Part shown: positions 2,614 to 41,243 of the stretch, in pieces | Layout of the letters: the number at the start of each line of letters is the position of its first letter | Numbering within the stretch: position 1 is the first letter of the stretch | Assembly: GCA_965227515.1 (NCBI GenBank) | Contig: CBDDFZ010000001.1 | Coordinates: 768,001 to 832,000, forward strand | DNA: 64,000 nt | Direction: 5' to 3' | Source: Alphaproteobacteria bacterium | GTDB lineage: Bacteria; Pseudomonadota; Alphaproteobacteria; CALKHQ01 | Notes under the pieces: model-generated | What the model saw: only the letters and a program-made list of their open reading frames with translations | What the model was told of the DNA's origin: nothing | Database searches by the model: none | Program-made: the position numbers and the translations under genes

Positions 2614-2872
2614 GGCGGCCGATTGTCAGAACAAGATGGCGGCCATGGATAGACCGCGACGGGGCCGAGCGCAATGCGCCTCGGCTCGCCCGCCGGTCTC
2701 AGGTGCGGTCACAAGAAGTCCATGCGGCAACCGGTCACCCTCCCCGACGAATATTTGAGTGCTCATATGGTGTTAAGACGAGCGACCAGGTGAAGGTGGC
2801 ACGGCTTGAGGATCGCCCGTGTAATCGCGGGCGGTGGGCATGTGTGCTTTCTAAAGAAGAACGAGGCTGTCG

Positions 2873-3484
2873 ATGACAAGACTTGCAATCGGATGCCTGT
2901 TGGCATCGTGCGTGCTGATCGCGGGTTGCGCGCAACGCGTGGCGCCGACCACCGACGACGGTGTGGAGCCACCGGATAACGAGGCCGAGCTGGCGGTGGT
3001 GCCGGCGTCCACGTCGGCGCCGTCGGTGGTGGTTTCCGACGATCCGCCACGTGAGTTGCGGTTCACGTCGCAGTTGTCCTCCAGCCAACGCGCCGTCATC
3101 CGTTCCGAACTGGCCGAGATGACCGGATTGAACGCGGCCTTGTCCGGGGCGACGGCGGTGGACATCGACCTGAACGCGGACGGCACCAACGAGGTGCTGG
3201 TGATGATCAAGAACAATGCCTGGTGCGGGTCCGGCGATGTTTGCAACATCTGGTTGTTCGGCCAAACTGCGGACGGGTGGCGCCAGCTTGGCAGCGGCCG
3301 GGACGCGGGCTCGTGTGTCTCCGTGTTGCCGACGGCCACCAACGGCTACCGGGACCTGCGGTTGCACGGCCAATGTGCGGTCGAGATGTGCACGTTCGAC
3401 CTGCGCTATGACGGCAACCAGTACCAGTGGGACGGCAACAGCGACTGCGAAGAAATACCGGAACTGATCTTGAGACAGCCGTAA
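2873..3484 (+). CDS. Hypothetical Cys-rich lipoprotein
   Basis: Signal peptide with lipobox IAGC; DLNADGTNE and WCGSGDVC motifs; GAGG RBS. Confidence 0.65.
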   Translation: MTRLAIGCLLASCVLIAGCAQRVAPTTDDGVEPPDNEAELAVVPASTSAPSVVVSDDPPRELRFTSQLSSSQRAVIRSELAEMTGLNAALSGATAVDIDLNADGTNEVLVMIKNNAWCGSGDVCNIWLFGQTADGWRQLGSGRDAGSCVSVLPTATNGYRDLRLHGQCAVEMCTFDLRYDGNQYQWDGNSDCEEIPELILRQP

Positions 3485-14705: not shown

Positions 14706-15131
14706 TTAATGAGCAAGACTCATTAGTTTGATGAATCCCGCTTCAAGATCCACGCCTAGCGCATCTTGATAGTTTTGCTGGGCCTGATCAACAAATCGCG
14801 CGCCTGGCGTCTTGATGTCGCGCCACAAACCACCTAGGTCCGAGGGGAAATATTCCAAGGTAATGCCTGCGATAAACGCAGTGTAGTATGCAGAAAAGTA
14901 GTCACCGCGCTCAATGTGTCCGGCTATCTGATCAACCATCATTTCCTCAAATACTGCCCTGGTTTCCCGGATGATATCTCTCGGAGGGAGTATATTTGGA
15001 TCAGCAAAATTGTCGTCAATGATCGACTTGCCATCATTGATTGCGAGCGGTTCGTCAGCGTGGACATTCTCGACTGAAAGGCAGGCGGTGAATAATACAA
15101 CAACCACACTCATAGAATGCAAAATTCTCAT
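14706..15131 (-). CDS. Hypothetical exported protein (low-GC islet)
   Basis: ORF with signal peptide, coupled to upstream ORF (ATGA overlap), GGAG RBS. Confidence 0.6.
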   Translation of the reverse strand: MRILHSMSVVVVLFTACLSVENVHADEPLAINDGKSIIDDNFADPNILPPRDIIRETRAVFEEMMVDQIAGHIERGDYFSAYYTAFIAGITLEYFPSDLGGLWRDIKTPGARFVDQAQQNYQDALGVDLEAGFIKLMSLAH

Positions 15132-15508
15132 GACTGATCTCCTGTCGTCGCTATATATGCAGTGTGGTGTGTTTCAATTAGTTCCCGTGCCTTCTCAAGC
15201 AAGTGAGCCCGCAACGCCGGCCTTACCCCTGCCCGCAATGAAGACCAACCGCCATTCCTTTTTACTTGCGTCTCAACCATAGCTAAGTACGCAGTAATCG
15301 CTGCGCCACAGCTCTGGAAAGCGCTATCGATGGCTGAATCTATATGTTGCCCGTCCGCTACATGATGTGCGGCCCCAAACTCTGCACAGACAATAAAATC
15401 TCGAAAGCGACTTTCTAGAGAATTTGTGCCTGAGGTGCTCGATCCACTGGAGGCAACGCAGCCCGCTAGAAAGACGACCAAAGCTAGTATGCCAATTCTG
15501 TGATGCAT
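15128..15508 (-). CDS. Hypothetical lipoprotein (low-GC islet)
   Basis: Lipobox LAGC followed by a Ser-rich linker; GAGG RBS. Confidence 0.6.
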   Translation of the reverse strand: MHHRIGILALVVFLAGCVASSGSSTSGTNSLESRFRDFIVCAEFGAAHHVADGQHIDSAIDSAFQSCGAAITAYLAMVETQVKRNGGWSSLRAGVRPALRAHLLEKARELIETHHTAYIATTGDQS

Positions 15509-15734
15509 AAATCTGCCTCGTTCACCTCTGCTTCGATACAATTTTTTTCTATCACGCCGTCTGGTTGGTGGCAATTATTCCAATTGGGGGTTTATGGAAA
15601 TGTTAGTCACAACAGCAAGCGTAGATGGGCTAACGGCCCTCGTTTGGTGGCTTGCATGAGTGGTCGTCCCTCAAGATGTCGGTGTCATACACGGAGTCGG
15701 GTTTGCCGCTCCAAGACATCGAGGAGAGACGACC

Positions 15735-16778
15735 ATGAACTACTATGCCGGGATTGACGTTTCTTTGGAATGGTCATCGGTGTGCGTTGTTGACGGCGCG
15801 GGCGGGATTGTCTGCGAGGCTCGTATTGCGAGCACGCCGGCGGGTTTGTTGTTGTGGTTTGGGTCTTTGGGGATTTCGGTTGAGCGGATTGGTCTTGAGG
15901 CGGGGCCGTTGTCGCAATGGCTTGTGCGGGAGTGCGCGCAGGGCGGTCTTTCGGTTGAGTTGCTGGAGACGCGTCATGTTGCGCGGGCCCTTTCGACGAT
16001 GCCGGTGAAGTCGGACCGCTCGGACGCACGCGGGATTGCTCAGCTGATGCGTGTGGGCTGGTTTCGTCCGGTTCACTGCAAGTCTTTGGCGGCCCAGGAG
16101 ATGCGGGCCCTTTTGAAGGGTCGCGACCAGCTCCGCGCGAAGCTGCACGATCTTGAGATGCACCTTCGTGGTCAGCTGCGGAACTTCGGGCTGAAGGTAG
16201 GGCACACCACCAGGCGCAGCTTTTCGACACGTATTTCGGAGCTTGTGGCGGGGCATCCGGTACTGGAGGCGGTGGCGGGGGCGCTGCTGTCGGCACGCGA
16301 TGGCCTGTTGCTATCGTTCACGGCGCTGGACCGGCAGGTCCGAGCGGCATCGCAGGCGGACGATCGCGCTCGCCTGCTGATGACGGTGCCGGGCGTGGGG
16401 AGCATTGTCGGACTGACCTACTTGTCGGGAGTGGACGACCCCGGGCGGTTTGCCTCGTCGCGCCTGGTGGGGGCGCACTTCGGCCTGACGCCGACCAAGC
16501 GCCAGTCGGGCGAGAGCGAGATGACGGGGCGGATCTCGAAGGTGGGCGATGCGGACGTGCGTGCAGCGCTTTACGAGGCGGCGCACGTAATCCTGACCCG
16601 GCCGATCAAGGGCGGGTGGTTGAAGAGCTGGGCGATGAAGCTGGCCAGGCGAGCCGGCATGAGGAAGGCGAAGGTCGCGCTGGCGCGCCGGCTGGCCGTG
16701 ATCATGCACCGGATGTGGGTTGACGGCACCGCGTTCAACCATGCCGGACCGGTGCGCCCGGCGATGGCAGCGGCCTAA
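15735..16778 (+). CDS. IS110-family DEDD recombinase/transposase
   Basis: GIDVS, GLEAG, KSDRSDA (DEDD); VPGVG; QSGES catalytic Ser; ALARRLA. Confidence 0.96.
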   Translation: MNYYAGIDVSLEWSSVCVVDGAGGIVCEARIASTPAGLLLWFGSLGISVERIGLEAGPLSQWLVRECAQGGLSVELLETRHVARALSTMPVKSDRSDARGIAQLMRVGWFRPVHCKSLAAQEMRALLKGRDQLRAKLHDLEMHLRGQLRNFGLKVGHTTRRSFSTRISELVAGHPVLEAVAGALLSARDGLLLSFTALDRQVRAASQADDRARLLMTVPGVGSIVGLTYLSGVDDPGRFASSRLVGAHFGLTPTKRQSGESEMTGRISKVGDADVRAALYEAAHVILTRPIKGGWLKSWAMKLARRAGMRKAKVALARRLAVIMHRMWVDGTAFNHAGPVRPAMAAA

Positions 16779-16849
16779 TGGCAAAGACGACCGCCGCATA
16801 GGGAGAACCAGCACACGAGCTTCGGCGGGCGCAGACACCGGCCCGTCAA

Positions 16850-17015
16850 GCGCCGTCCCGCGCCGGGACGATGGATCAGGTCAGGCCGCCATCCAGGATG
16901 TCGCCTCGCACGAGAGCACGCTTCCGTAGATTGGACCGACCGATCCTCGCATATCCATCTTGGTGGCGGCCGTGCGCCGACCCCGTACAGAAGCATGACC
17001 CAGGCGCCGGGACGA
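16850..17015 (+). ncRNA. Predicted bridge RNA / seekRNA of IS copy 1 (boundaries approximate)
   Basis: 5' hairpin 16854-16870; target-matching 16889-16897 and 16924-16929; donor-matching 16955-16961 and 16986-16993, each pair flanking an inner hairpin. Confidence 0.75.
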
Positions 17016-17053
17016 CGAAAAAGGGATTGACCAACAATGGCCCGTTACAGAAG

Positions 17054-17106
17054 CCTGGGTGAAACGAAGCGGAACCCGGGTTTCACTGCGTTCCACCCGG
17101 GTTACG
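17054..17106. repeat. GTAG-type REP dyad interrupted by IS copy 1
   Basis: Rejoined site cgtagcctgggtgaaacgaagcggaacccggg...ccacccgggttacg matches 59171-59258. Confidence 0.88.
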
Positions 17107-17118
17107 AGAGCTTGCCGC

Positions 17119-17973
17119 CTACAACGACCGCAAATACGCAATCAACGCCGCCATGTCCTCGTCGGTCATGTTGGCGTAGGCGTAGGTGCCCATCGGCGGC
17201 AGCAGCTGCGAGCCGTCGGGCCGCACGCCGGTGGTGATGATCTGGACCAGCTCCTCGTCTGAATAGCGCTCCAGGGCCGCTCCGGTGATCGGCGGCGAGA
17301 CGCTGACGCCCCACGGGCCGTGGAACGGGAAGCCGCCCTGGTTCAGCGCGTTCTCCAGGTCGGGCGCGCCCATTGGGCCGGGCGACGAGTGGCACTCGGT
17401 GCAGTGGCCGAGCGGGCCTGCCAGGTATTCGCCATACGCCAACTGATCGGCTGGGTCGACGTCGGCCACGCTGTCGATCGGCGGGCCGTAGGCGGGCGGC
17501 AGTGGCACGTGGTACTCGGACGGCTGCACCTCGTTCTCCACCGCCGGCACTTGCCTGAGATAGGCGATGATCGCGTCGACATCGTTGTCGGAAAGCCCGC
17601 GATAGACCTGGCACGGCATCGGCGGGCCGATGATGGCCCCGTCCGGCCGCAGGCACTCGCGGATGGCGCGCGCGATATCCTCGTCGCTCCAGGTCCCGAT
17701 GCCGGTTCCCTCGTCGGGCGTGATGTTCGGCGTGAAGACCATGAACACGCCGGGTTCCTCGATCGGCAGGCCGCCGGCCAGTTCCATGCCGGGGATCAGC
17801 CCGTCCTGGTTTTGCGGCGTGTGGCAGTTGCCGCAATTGACGATGGACTGCATCAGGTAGGTGCCGCGCTCCAGCGGCGTTTGCCCGGTCGCCACGGACG
17901 CGCCGGTCGCCAGGCACAAAAAAACGGCCGCGGCAGATGCGCCACGAACCGTCCACTTCCCACCGAACTGCAT
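17119..17973 (-). CDS. Di-heme cytochrome c (start uncertain)
   Basis: CGNCH and CTECH motifs; PNITPD..TGIG.WS; signal peptide. Confidence 0.9.
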   Translation of the reverse strand: MQFGGKWTVRGASAAAVFLCLATGASVATGQTPLERGTYLMQSIVNCGNCHTPQNQDGLIPGMELAGGLPIEEPGVFMVFTPNITPDEGTGIGTWSDEDIARAIRECLRPDGAIIGPPMPCQVYRGLSDNDVDAIIAYLRQVPAVENEVQPSEYHVPLPPAYGPPIDSVADVDPADQLAYGEYLAGPLGHCTECHSSPGPMGAPDLENALNQGGFPFHGPWGVSVSPPITGAALERYSDEELVQIITTGVRPDGSQLLPPMGTYAYANMTDEDMAALIAYLRSL

Positions 17974-39772: not shown

Positions 39773-39810
39773 CTTCTGTAACGGGCCATTGTTGGTCAAT
39801 CCCTTTTTCG

Positions 39811-39976
39811 TCGTCCCGGCGCCTGGGTCATGCTTCTGTACGGGGTCGGCGCAGGGCCGCCGCCAAGATGGATATGCGAGGATCGGTCGGTCCAATCTAC
39901 GGAAGCGTGCTCTCATGCGAGGCGACATCCCGGATGGCGGCCTGACCTGATCCATCGTCCCGGCGCGGGACGGCGC
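39811..39976 (-). ncRNA. Predicted bridge RNA / seekRNA of IS copy 2 (boundaries approximate)
   Basis: Guide-like segments at 39929-39937, 39897-39902, 39865-39871, 39833-39840. Confidence 0.75.
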
Positions 39977-40038
39977 TCGACGGGCCGGTGTCGGTGCCCG
40001 TCGAAGCTCGTGTGTCGGTTCTCCTTATGCCGCGGCCA

Positions 40039-41082
40039 TCATGCTGTCGCCATCGCCGGGCGCACCGGTCCGGCATGGTTGAACGGTGTGCCGTCAACCC
40101 ACATCCGGTGCATGATCACGGCGAGCCGGCGCGCCAGCGCGACCTTCGCCTTCCTCATGCCCGCACGCCTGGCCAGCTTCATCGCCCAGCTCTTCAGCCA
40201 GCCGCCCTCGATCGGCCGGGTCAGAACCACGTGTGCCGCCTCATAGAGGGCCGAGCGCACATCGGCGTCCCCTACCTTCGATATCCGCCCCATCACCTCG
40301 CTCTCGCCCGACTGGCGCTTGGTCGGCGTCAGGCCGAAGTGCGCACCCACCAGGCGCGACGAGGCAAACCGCCCGGGGTCGTCCACTCCCGACAAGTAGG
40401 TCAGTCCGACAATGCTCCCCACGCCCGGCACCGTCATCAGCAGGCGAGCGCGATCGTCGGCCTGCGCCGCCGCCCGGACCTGCCGGTCCAGCGCCGTGAA
40501 CGATAGCAACAGGCCATCGCGTGCCGACAGCAGCGCCCCCGCCACCGCCTCCAGTACCGGATGCCCCGCCACAAGCTCCGAAATACGTGTCGAAAAGCTG
40601 CGCCTGGTGGTGTGCCCTACCTTCAGCCCGAAGTTCCGCAGCTGACCACGAAGGTGCATCTCAAGATCGTGCAGCTTCGCGCGGAGCTGGTCGCGACCCT
40701 TCAAAAGGGCCCGCATCTCCTGGGCCGCCAAAGACTTGCAGTGAACCGGACGAAACCAGCCCACACGCATCAGCTGAGCAATCCCGCGTGCGTCCGAGCG
40801 GTCCGACTTCACCGGCATCGTCGAAAGGGCCCGCGCAACATGACGCGTCTCCAGCAACTCAACCGAAAGACCGCCCTGCGCGCACTCCCGCACAAGCCAT
40901 TGCGACAACGGCCCCGCCTCAAGACCAATCCGCTCAACCGAAATCCCCAAAGACCCAAACCACAACAACAAACCCGCCGGCGTGCTCGCAATACGAGCCT
41001 CGCAGACAATCCCGCCCGCGCCGTCAACAACGCATACCGATGACCATTCCAAAGAAACGTCAATCCCGGCATAGTAGTTCAT
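40039..41082 (-). CDS. IS110-family DEDD recombinase/transposase
   Basis: Same DEDD and QSGES motifs as copy 1; a few C-terminal substitutions. Confidence 0.96.
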   Translation of the reverse strand: MNYYAGIDVSLEWSSVCVVDGAGGIVCEARIASTPAGLLLWFGSLGISVERIGLEAGPLSQWLVRECAQGGLSVELLETRHVARALSTMPVKSDRSDARGIAQLMRVGWFRPVHCKSLAAQEMRALLKGRDQLRAKLHDLEMHLRGQLRNFGLKVGHTTRRSFSTRISELVAGHPVLEAVAGALLSARDGLLLSFTALDRQVRAAAQADDRARLLMTVPGVGSIVGLTYLSGVDDPGRFASSRLVGAHFGLTPTKRQSGESEVMGRISKVGDADVRSALYEAAHVVLTRPIEGGWLKSWAMKLARRAGMRKAKVALARRLAVIMHRMWVDGTPFNHAGPVRPAMATA

Positions 41083-41243
41083 GGTCGTCTCTCCTCGATG
41101 TCTTGGAGCGGCAAACCCGACTCCGTGTATGACACCGACATCTTGAGGGACGACCACTCATGCACGCCACCAAACAAGGGCCGTTAGCCCATCTACGGGT
41201 TTTCTTGCCAATGGCATCTTGAGGTCGCGGCTGATTGCGCCGC

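Follow-up and report, generated by a model that had tools for sequence, protein, structure and literature searches.

Introduction

RNA-guided recombinases of the IS110 family of insertion sequences (ISs) were described in 2024. In IS621, two bases of the bridge RNA come after the right target guide and two after the right donor guide; once strands have been exchanged, the former pair with the donor and the latter with the target (Hiraizumi 2024, PMC11208158). Elements of the IS1111 group encode transposases of 330-350 amino acids with a GL-P----S(t)G motif (Siddiquee 2024, PMC11187229) and carry subterminal inverted repeats that are 7-17 bp long (Durrant 2024, PMC11208160). Two RNAs co-purify with IS1111 transposases, a long seekRNA of 145-170 nucleotides (nt) and a short one of 70-100 nt; the short form was sufficient for transposition of ISEc11, the donor needed the right-target flank, and that account reached no conclusion on what the long form does (Siddiquee 2024, PMC11187229). 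Bridge RNAs have already been predicted in 93% of the IS1111 elements in ISfinder (Durrant 2024, PMC11208160), and the kind of system treated here is therefore already known.

In this report, we examine a 64,000-nt stretch of an alphaproteobacterial genome (GenBank assembly GCA_965227515.1, contig CBDDFZ010000001.1, positions 768,001 to 832,000 of the forward strand; hereafter, the window), to which all coordinates refer unless stated otherwise. It contains two copies of a 1.43-kb element of the IS110 family, IS1111 group, and our subject is the non-coding DNA that follows the transposase gene in copy 1. The sequence comparisons detailed below indicate that this region is very probably the non-coding 3' end of an active element of the IS1111 type, and that it encodes a bispecific bridge RNA, or “long seekRNA”, of about 159 nt.

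Results

Target guides and insertion sites

The genome, which is assembled in two contigs (4.07 and 1.45 Mb), holds 20 full copies of the element, with the same ends throughout and at 20 different sites. Every copy lies in the sequence GT-AG/CCYGGRTG, in a single orientation relative to a repetitive extragenic palindromic (REP)-like repeat and with no long target duplication. On the left flank, positions -1 and -2 are T and G, respectively, in every copy, and 15 of the 20 have C at -3; the first base of the right flank is always C. Segments of the predicted RNA match both target strands, either side of the insertion point. Guide 1, the left target guide in IS621 terms (CCAUCCAGG, positions 16889-16897 of the plus strand; CCATCCAGG as DNA), has its complement in CCTGGRTGG, which is the right flank read on the transposase strand. 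Guide 2 (16924-16931, plus strand) consists of the right target guide CCGU, the core AG and then AU, and it answers to the left flank GT-AG present in 20/20 copies.

The match is most complete for copy 2, which occupies 39773-41194 on the minus strand, with its RNA at 39813-39974 and its guide 1, CCAUCCGGG, at 39929-37 (CCATCCGGG as minus-strand DNA). Its flanks read ...CCCGT-AG-[IS]-AG-CCCGGATGG; the opposite strand is ccatccggg-CT-acgg, exactly as an initial annotation of the window had given this target, and it fits both target guides perfectly. Guide 1 of copy 1 fits its own target less than perfectly, at 7/9 positions plus one U·G wobble. The guide strings named in that annotation all stand where it had placed them (the first guide at 16889-97, CCGTAG at 16924-29, CCATCTT at 16955-61 and TACAGAAG at 16986-93). 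In 200,000 mononucleotide shuffles of the tail of copy 2, the four exact motifs arose singly at rates of 0.29%, 7.8%, 0.46% and 0.23%, and never all together.

The 159-nt RNA region exists in three versions in the genome, which differ at four variable positions, one of them within guide 1. Subfamily A comprises the seven copies that carry guide CCAUCCAGG, copy 1 among them, and subfamily B the 13 copies, including copy 2, with guide CCAUCCGGG. The A-variant of guide 1 adjoins CCTGG in 7/7 copies, whereas the G-variant adjoins CCCGG in 11/13 and CCTGG in the other two, where a G·U wobble is possible; over the 20 copies, the guide variant (A or G) and the flank variant (T or C) are associated (Fisher p=4.6e-4). 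The association persists when the supply of sites is taken into account. We counted 114 unoccupied GTAG/CCYGGRTG sites, which fall by their two variable positions into CG (60), TG (33), CA (18) and TA (3). With these included, subfamily B fills 9 of 27 perfectly matching CA sites vs 4 of 107 others (p=6.6e-5), and subfamily A fills 7 of 45 T-sites vs none of 89 C-sites (p=3.5e-4). Six of the seven subfamily A insertions involve a U·G wobble at flank position 6. Judged by these sequences, two subfamilies that stand one guide base apart (A or G) co-reside in the genome and use different REP variants.

The right half of copy 1's target is a REP-like repeat at 17054-17080 (plus strand), in which the right flank makes up the first arm of the palindrome. 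The repeat family begins with GTAG: 136 strict matches occur genome-wide, 89 of them preceded by GTAG and 20 by GAAG, the latter being the occupied sites. These repeats often lie in overlapping inverted pairs, such as that beside copy 1 (17054-17110).

Guides of related elements

A scan of one genome per species yielded 75 related loci, mostly from soil Alphaproteobacteria, with transposases 37-69% identical to that of the window. When aligned, the tails of these relatives share a conserved scaffold, and the guide 1 position within it varies and fits each element's own right flank; examples are AAUCCGCC (locus L022), CAACCCGCC (L023), AAACCGCU (L024), CAUGCGGG (L029-33), CGCAUGUCCG (L047) and CCAACAUU (L080). 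Over 16 guide classes, the best 9-base match of guide 1 averaged 7.4 with the element's own flank vs 5.4 with the flanks of others, a value that 0/100,000 permutations reached. For guide 2, taken as the six bases before the invariant AG, the match to the left flank was 3.7/6 for own flanks vs 1.7 for others over 13 classes, and one permutation in 100,000 was as high (p ~2e-5).

Both permutation tests cover one representative of each guide class among loci with recognised ends and anchor motifs. Ends were not recognised in L021, L028, L037, L039, L043, L051-54, L057-59, L061, L063, L069, L074, L077, L079 and L086, and anchor motifs were missing from L040, L041, L056 and L064. Also omitted were L025, whose end lies 480 nt downstream and whose guide mismatches the flank, and L034, whose flank is a second RNA module. 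The guide 2 test alone further leaves out L070 (truncated left flank) and L029 (guide 2 the same as that of the window).

Two of these loci deserve mention in their own right. In L034, two whole RNA modules stand in tandem after the transposase gene (2596-2761 and 2849-3014 of that locus), and the non-coding region restarts in the flank past the first right end, which recalls the modular movement of ssr9 in ISPpu9. The flank of L027 fits the guide of L024, an element of the same assembly; this may reflect guiding in trans by the sister element, or later drift of the sequence.

Predicted fold of the RNA

The predicted RNA spans 16855-17013 on the plus strand, as do all of the helices described here. 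It is closed by a long-range outer helix, P1 (16855-16867 with 17000-17013), that encloses two internal loops. The target-binding domain (16873-16946) is formed by stem P2 (16873-88 with 16932-46; 17 pairs, a two-pair extension included), which surrounds an internal loop with an inner hairpin, P3 (16900-04 with 16916-19), whose four pairs were added by hand. The donor loop contains a corresponding inner hairpin, P5 (16965-70 with 16976-82). The guides sit in these two loops, where they flank the inner hairpins. The predicted sizes, 159 nt for the RNA closed by P1 and about 74-81 nt for the target (P2) domain, agree with those of the long and short seekRNAs, respectively.

The fold was assessed on two alignments: A2, an unfitted alignment of 18 sequences, and A3, in which 53 distinct sequences were fitted to a covariance model, so that A3 is biased towards the model. 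RNAalifold, run on the 18 sequences, returned the outer helix, a long stem closing the target loop and the hairpin inside the donor loop. On A2, 86% of the cells pair, vs 35-48% when the partners are slid, and 25/37 pairs are compensatory, a number reached by 0/500 shuffles; four of five structure measures went unreached by any of the 500. On A3, 90.7% of the cells pair and 35/37 pairs are compensatory. By helix, the compensatory pairs of P1 number 8/11 on A2 and 10/11 on A3, and P2 has 10 pairs with changes on both sides (A2). In P5, all cells pair and 4/5 pairs are compensatory on A2, with 5/5 on A3.

The covariance model built from the alignment (R1) matches 63/75 of the relative loci, always on the transposase strand just 3' of the gene; one locus gives an extra, weak match on the minus strand (E=0.0028). 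In its own genome, R1 finds exactly the 20 copies and one broken copy, and its match to copy 1 spans 16852-17013. A search of Rfam with positions 15000-17600 gave no family match at E up to 1.

These results bear on the architecture that the initial annotation had sketched. The stem strings that it listed around the target pair are present (GGATC/GATCC at 16873-77/16942-46, and GGTC at 16879-82 with GACC at either 16934-37 or 16938-41), and its view that each guide pair flanks an inner hairpin accords with two internal loops whose hairpins show compensatory changes. Its 5' hairpin (16854-70) has fared less well. The local hairpin can form, but covariation favours the pairing of 16855-67 with 17000-13, and RNAalifold likewise joins the putative hairpin strand to the segment 3' of the last guide, so that the supposed loop bases covary with a distant strand. 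We found no covariation for the hairpin itself: on A2, 64% of its cells are paired, with arms that are mis-registered and nearly invariant, a count that neither supports nor excludes it.

As to whether the guides lie in loops, as that annotation held, or in stems, the energies and the covariation differ. With the guides held unpaired, the fold is the loop model, including P2 and P3, at -58.8 kcal/mol, and covariation also places the guides in loops; the unconstrained minimum-energy fold pairs guide 1, and this alone among our results is of the kind that the annotation had named as counting against its reading. We weigh this fold of the naked RNA below the covariation.

A separate observation concerns GGCCGCCA (16884-16891, reaching into the start of guide 1), which is complementary to the 5' strand of P5 (16964-16971). 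This complementarity is kept in L022 and L027 with an A/U change and is lost in L024; the pairing may represent an alternative, closed form of the RNA, or chance in a G+C-rich sequence.

Donor guides and handshake-like positions

The second loop contains segments that match the two ends of the element itself. CCAU plus CU(U) (16955-16961, plus strand) is complementary to the left tip, ATGG, plus the core, and CCGUACAGA, followed by the core AG and then CA (16983-16995, plus strand), reproduces the right tip CCGTTACAGAAG except for one omitted T. Thus, by sequence, CCAU-CU corresponds to the left tip and CCGUACAGA-AG to the right tip, as these would be joined in the predicted excised circle. 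The right donor guide is discontinuous relative to its tip (CCG-UACAGAAG against CCGTTACAGAAG), as in IS621.

Among the relatives, the left donor guide tracks the left end, with CCCAU where that end is ATGGG and GGCAU where it is ATGCC (L038 and L070); the heptamers ACAGAAG, AGAGAAG and AGCGAAG of the right donor guide equal the right-end heptamers in the respective groups. The core AG is invariant in both 3' guides, and the left donor guide has CU here and CA in close relatives (CCCAUCA). The reading of CCATCTT as left donor guide plus core stands in part: the string is present, but close relatives conserve no more of it than CCAU plus C. The donor-guide variants are few, which makes this evidence weaker than that for the target guides. 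That all four guides can be identified, as first proposed, is backed by the 20 genomic copies and by the relatives.

The bases that follow the cores also follow a pattern. In the target loop, the dinucleotide AU after the core AG equals the first two bases of the element, AT; in eight distant loci with a readable end, a dinucleotide starting with C (e.g. CU) accompanies a left end that starts with C (AG-CT). In the donor loop, the core is followed by C, which is also the first flank base in 20/20 of the genome's own copies. This second correspondence holds in only part of the relatives, where A after the donor core always accompanies an A flank and C is often unmatched. The dinucleotides after both 3' guides are thus handshake-guide-like, in that their sequences fit the rule established for IS621.

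Element, transposase and ends

Copy 1 extends from 15623 to 17053 on the plus strand and is edged by AG at 15623-24 and 17052-53, of which one is part of the target; with the left AG at 15623-24 and a single AG counted, the element is 1429 bp in subfamily A and 1420 bp in subfamily B. Its sole long reading frame is the transposase gene (15735-16778, plus strand), which encodes 347 amino acids with a DEDD/RuvC-like domain and Transposase_20. The protein matches PF01548 (DEDD_Tnp_IS110; E=1.6e-12) and PF02371 (Transposase_20; E=1.1e-19), and it scores 236.5 bits against NCBIfam NF033542 (cut-off 140), whose current NCBI name is “IS110 family RNA-guided transposase”. Four of its motifs (GIDVS, GLEAG, KSDRSDAR and GLTPTKRQSG) have aligned counterparts in the solved transposase chains of IS621 and ISCro4. 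The length of 347 residues and GLTPTKRQSG, which is an instance of the GL-P----S(t)G motif, are both marks of IS1111 transposases. The frame is open in 20/20 full copies (347 residues in 18, 345 in two), in accord with the intact recombinase gene of the initial annotation.

The left subterminal inverted repeat, TAACGGCCC (15631-15639), is complementary at 8/9 positions to its partner at 17039-17047; the repeats sit six and four bases (plus core) from the element tips, and close relatives have a perfect 10-bp form, GTAACGGGCC. Non-coding DNA amounts to 275 nt 3' of the gene (16779-17053) vs 110 nt 5' of it (15625-15734). The IS1111-group membership of the element holds for the transposase, the subterminal repeats, the long downstream non-coding end and the site- and orientation-specific insertion. 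The IS110-group (IS621-like) layout does not apply here: the gene is upstream of the RNA, in the manner of IS1111-type elements, and subterminal repeats of 9-10 bp are present. The assignment to IS110/IS1111 made at the outset is thus upheld by the domain matches, the NF033542 score and the position of the RNA.

Proposed junction promoter and mechanism

TTGACC at 17027-17032 (plus strand) is a probable -35 box, for which a -10 box at a 17-nt spacing would span the circle junction. In the 18 aligned sequences, TTG is invariant, AC nearly so, and the distance from the end near-fixed; the junction-spanning hexamer 17 nt after TTGACC matches at 3/6 positions, including A2 and T6. A scan of the integrated copy (15550-17150) for sigma-70 promoters found 0 sites. 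The absence of an internal promoter is described as the usual state in the family (PMC11187229, PMC12288879). By analogy with ISEc11 and IS110-family precedent, TTGACC probably contributes to a promoter formed at the circle junction.

From what is known of the family, the element would excise as a circle, whose junction would complete a promoter with TTGACC from the right end, allowing transposase and RNA to be transcribed together. The RNA would then be processed and bound by the DEDD/serine recombinase. This complex would pair the target with the circle junction, strands would be exchanged at the AG/CT core, and no target duplication would arise beyond the shared AG.

Further observations on the copies

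The transposases are on average 97.0% identical within subfamily A and 99.4% identical within subfamily B, and several subfamily A copies are 99-100% identical in DNA. Right after the stop codon, the subfamilies are separated by a 9-base indel and several substitutions (16779-16800 vs 40020-40041), and C-terminal residues of the transposase also differ between them. Copies 1 and 2, which belong to different subfamilies and are about 95% identical, lie 22.7 kb apart and inverted to each other; the segment between them is a possible substrate for inversion. One internally deleted copy, outside the window at C1:998352-999181, joins the first 723 bases (89% identical) to the last 122 and retains part of the RNA region.

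Assembly contigs from four public DNA runs show a break or a jump in depth at about 15620 and at about 17055-75. One contig links ...CCGT straight to 17052, as expected of an empty REP elsewhere. Placed on the window, the contigs of the four runs gave no joints, hence no circle-junction or empty-site read. None of the public runs listed was an RNA run.

Discussion

The element described here is a new example of the RNA-guided recombinases reported in 2024, and it is a well-supported but ordinary one. Several observations weigh against the presence of a complete bridge RNA in its right end. At the core position of guide 1, AU stands where a CU core match would be expected, and CU appears only in more distant groups; a full core match is likewise missing from the left donor guide in close relatives. 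The donor guides and handshake positions vary over few states, which leaves their covariation thin. Guide 1 mismatches its own right flank in L027, L046 and L071, and guide 2 fits its own left flank poorly in L024, L036, L050, L062 and L080. As regards the fold, in the unconstrained minimum-energy structure (-72 kcal/mol), which keeps P1, the left donor guide and a strand of P5 are taken up by pairing with guide 1 and the bases 5' of it, and the loop model, computed with the guides held unpaired, is 13 kcal/mol less stable. A helix that would close the donor loop shows no consistent column pairs, only variable pyrimidine/purine pairings of 3-5 bp discerned by eye. Finally, model R1 misses IS4321 and two other plasmid IS110-family elements of uncertain identity, one from an E. 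coli plasmid and the other borne on an integron (best E=0.25); RNA homology to the experimentally tested seekRNAs is accordingly unsupported.

Do these difficulties call for another explanation? The most serious candidate holds that the target domain alone (about 16869-16949) is the functional seekRNA, that the “donor guides” are not guides, and that the protein recognises the element's ends through the subterminal repeats, with excision dependent on pairing of the seekRNA with the flanking target, as proposed for ISEc11 (Siddiquee 2024, PMC11187229). The ISEc11 results themselves, a sufficient short seekRNA and a donor that needed the right-target flank (PMC11187229), speak in its favour, as do a left donor match of just four nt plus core and donor-guide variants confined to few states. 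Dispensable sequences would not be expected, however, to keep P5 and P1 by compensatory changes over 53 sequences. Further, a left end of ATGCC is exactly where GGCAU takes the place of CCCAU, the heptamer of the right guide follows the right end in three variants, and the bases past each core conform to the handshake rule. We therefore consider a function limited to the target domain improbable.

Fainter still is the prospect that the element is a recently silenced relic, in which the RNA features were inherited but are unused and the distribution of copies records past activity. The integrated copy indeed has no promoter-like site, and one copy (C1:998352-999181) is internally deleted. Yet the lack of an internal promoter is normal in the family, every one of the 20 full copies retains an open frame, and several near-identical subfamily A copies (99-100% in DNA) contribute to the occupation of 20 different sites; a silenced element is, to our minds, very improbable. 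Least credible is the notion that the matches arose by chance, or are fragments of REPs captured in the tail with no guiding role. Target and tail are both G+C-rich and the target is palindromic, and CCGTAG alone is common enough in shuffled tails (7.8%) to lend that notion some initial appeal. It is already contradicted by the failure of 200,000 shuffles to produce the four motifs together, by the match of the same RNA positions to unrelated, non-REP flanks in relatives, and by the single-base guide variant that tracks site choice; we accord it almost no weight.

The interpretation that we favour remains that of a bispecific bridge RNA in the 3' end of an active element. A more comprehensive reading may be put forward tentatively, and we give it slightly less than even weight. 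The long seekRNA of this alphaproteobacterial IS1111 clade may be a complete bispecific bridge RNA that has the guide order and handshakes of IS621 when read on the CT strand, so that the “reversed order” reported for IS1111 guides would reflect an inverted gene cassette, not another mechanism. Both loops would be locked in a long-range helix, and two subfamilies, distinguished by A or G at 16895, would split the REP variants between them, with rG·dT and rU·dG wobbles tolerated. If this reading is true, the A/G subfamilies amount to a natural reprogramming experiment.

These findings leave the understanding of how IS1111 elements work unchanged, and as a candidate editing tool the element is one of thousands. 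They add a natural IS1111-type ortholog documented by 20 copies, 114 empty sites and about 60 related RNAs. Of use to others may be a covariation-supported fold for a bridge RNA of the IS1111 clade, with its outer closing helix; a natural single-base change in a guide with a measurable shift in site use; and sequence evidence that the long seekRNA, for which the seekRNA paper settled on no role, has donor guides and handshake positions.

Among described sequences, the nearest are alphaproteobacterial elements annotated as “IS110 family transposase” (for example on a plasmid of Methylocystis sp. MJC1 and in metagenome-assembled genomes from soil). They share with the present element transposases of 62-68% identity, the RNA (110-146 bits with model R1), the ends and the TTGAC box; they differ in guides and targets, and none exceeds 68% identity or is annotated with an IS name. 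A megablast of the element against plasmids gave no match, and a DNA search of 40 related genomes (three from its own family and 37 from its class) gave only weak partial matches, in three of them. The 90% protein cluster of the transposase has 12 members, none of them named and one found only on a Logan contig.

With IS621, the element shares the two internal loops and, as DNA on the CT strand, the guide order of left target, right target, left donor and right donor. In each loop, it is the 3' guide that takes in the core, and two bases in a handshake-like position come next; pairing of the right donor guide is discontinuous; the target is a REP; and the DEDD and serine motifs are conserved. 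The differences from IS621, as far as the published accounts describe it, are that the RNA here lies downstream of the transposase gene rather than upstream and is transcribed towards the element tip, that a long-range helix encloses both loops, that guide 1 lacks a full core match, and that the subterminal repeats are long. Similarity to the IS621 protein is mainly confined to the C-terminal domain (E ~1e-10). ISPpu9 of Pseudomonas putida (Pares-Guillen 2025, PMC12288879) is likewise an IS110-family element that inserts into REPs, recombines a target AG with an element AG and forms circular intermediates. It belongs to the IS110 group, however, and is described with an upstream bridge RNA, no subterminal repeats, a strong promoter of its own and the small RNAs Asr9 and Ssr9 (PMC12288879).

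The closest correspondence in layout is with the IS1111 elements ISEc11, ISPa11, ISKpn4 and ISPst6. As described, these have subterminal inverted repeats, a DEDD transposase of 330-350 amino acids in which GL-P----SG occurs, and a long downstream non-coding region, in which a match to the top strand lies 5' of a match to the bottom strand; all of these features recur here. No promoter is reported for them besides that of the circle junction, and here too one is predicted only there. ISPa11 also shares the REP target. The transposase of IS4321 is only about 25% identical to that of the window. What sets the present element apart from the IS1111 seekRNA elements, as these have been presented, is that the donor guides and handshake positions are also readable in its predicted long form.

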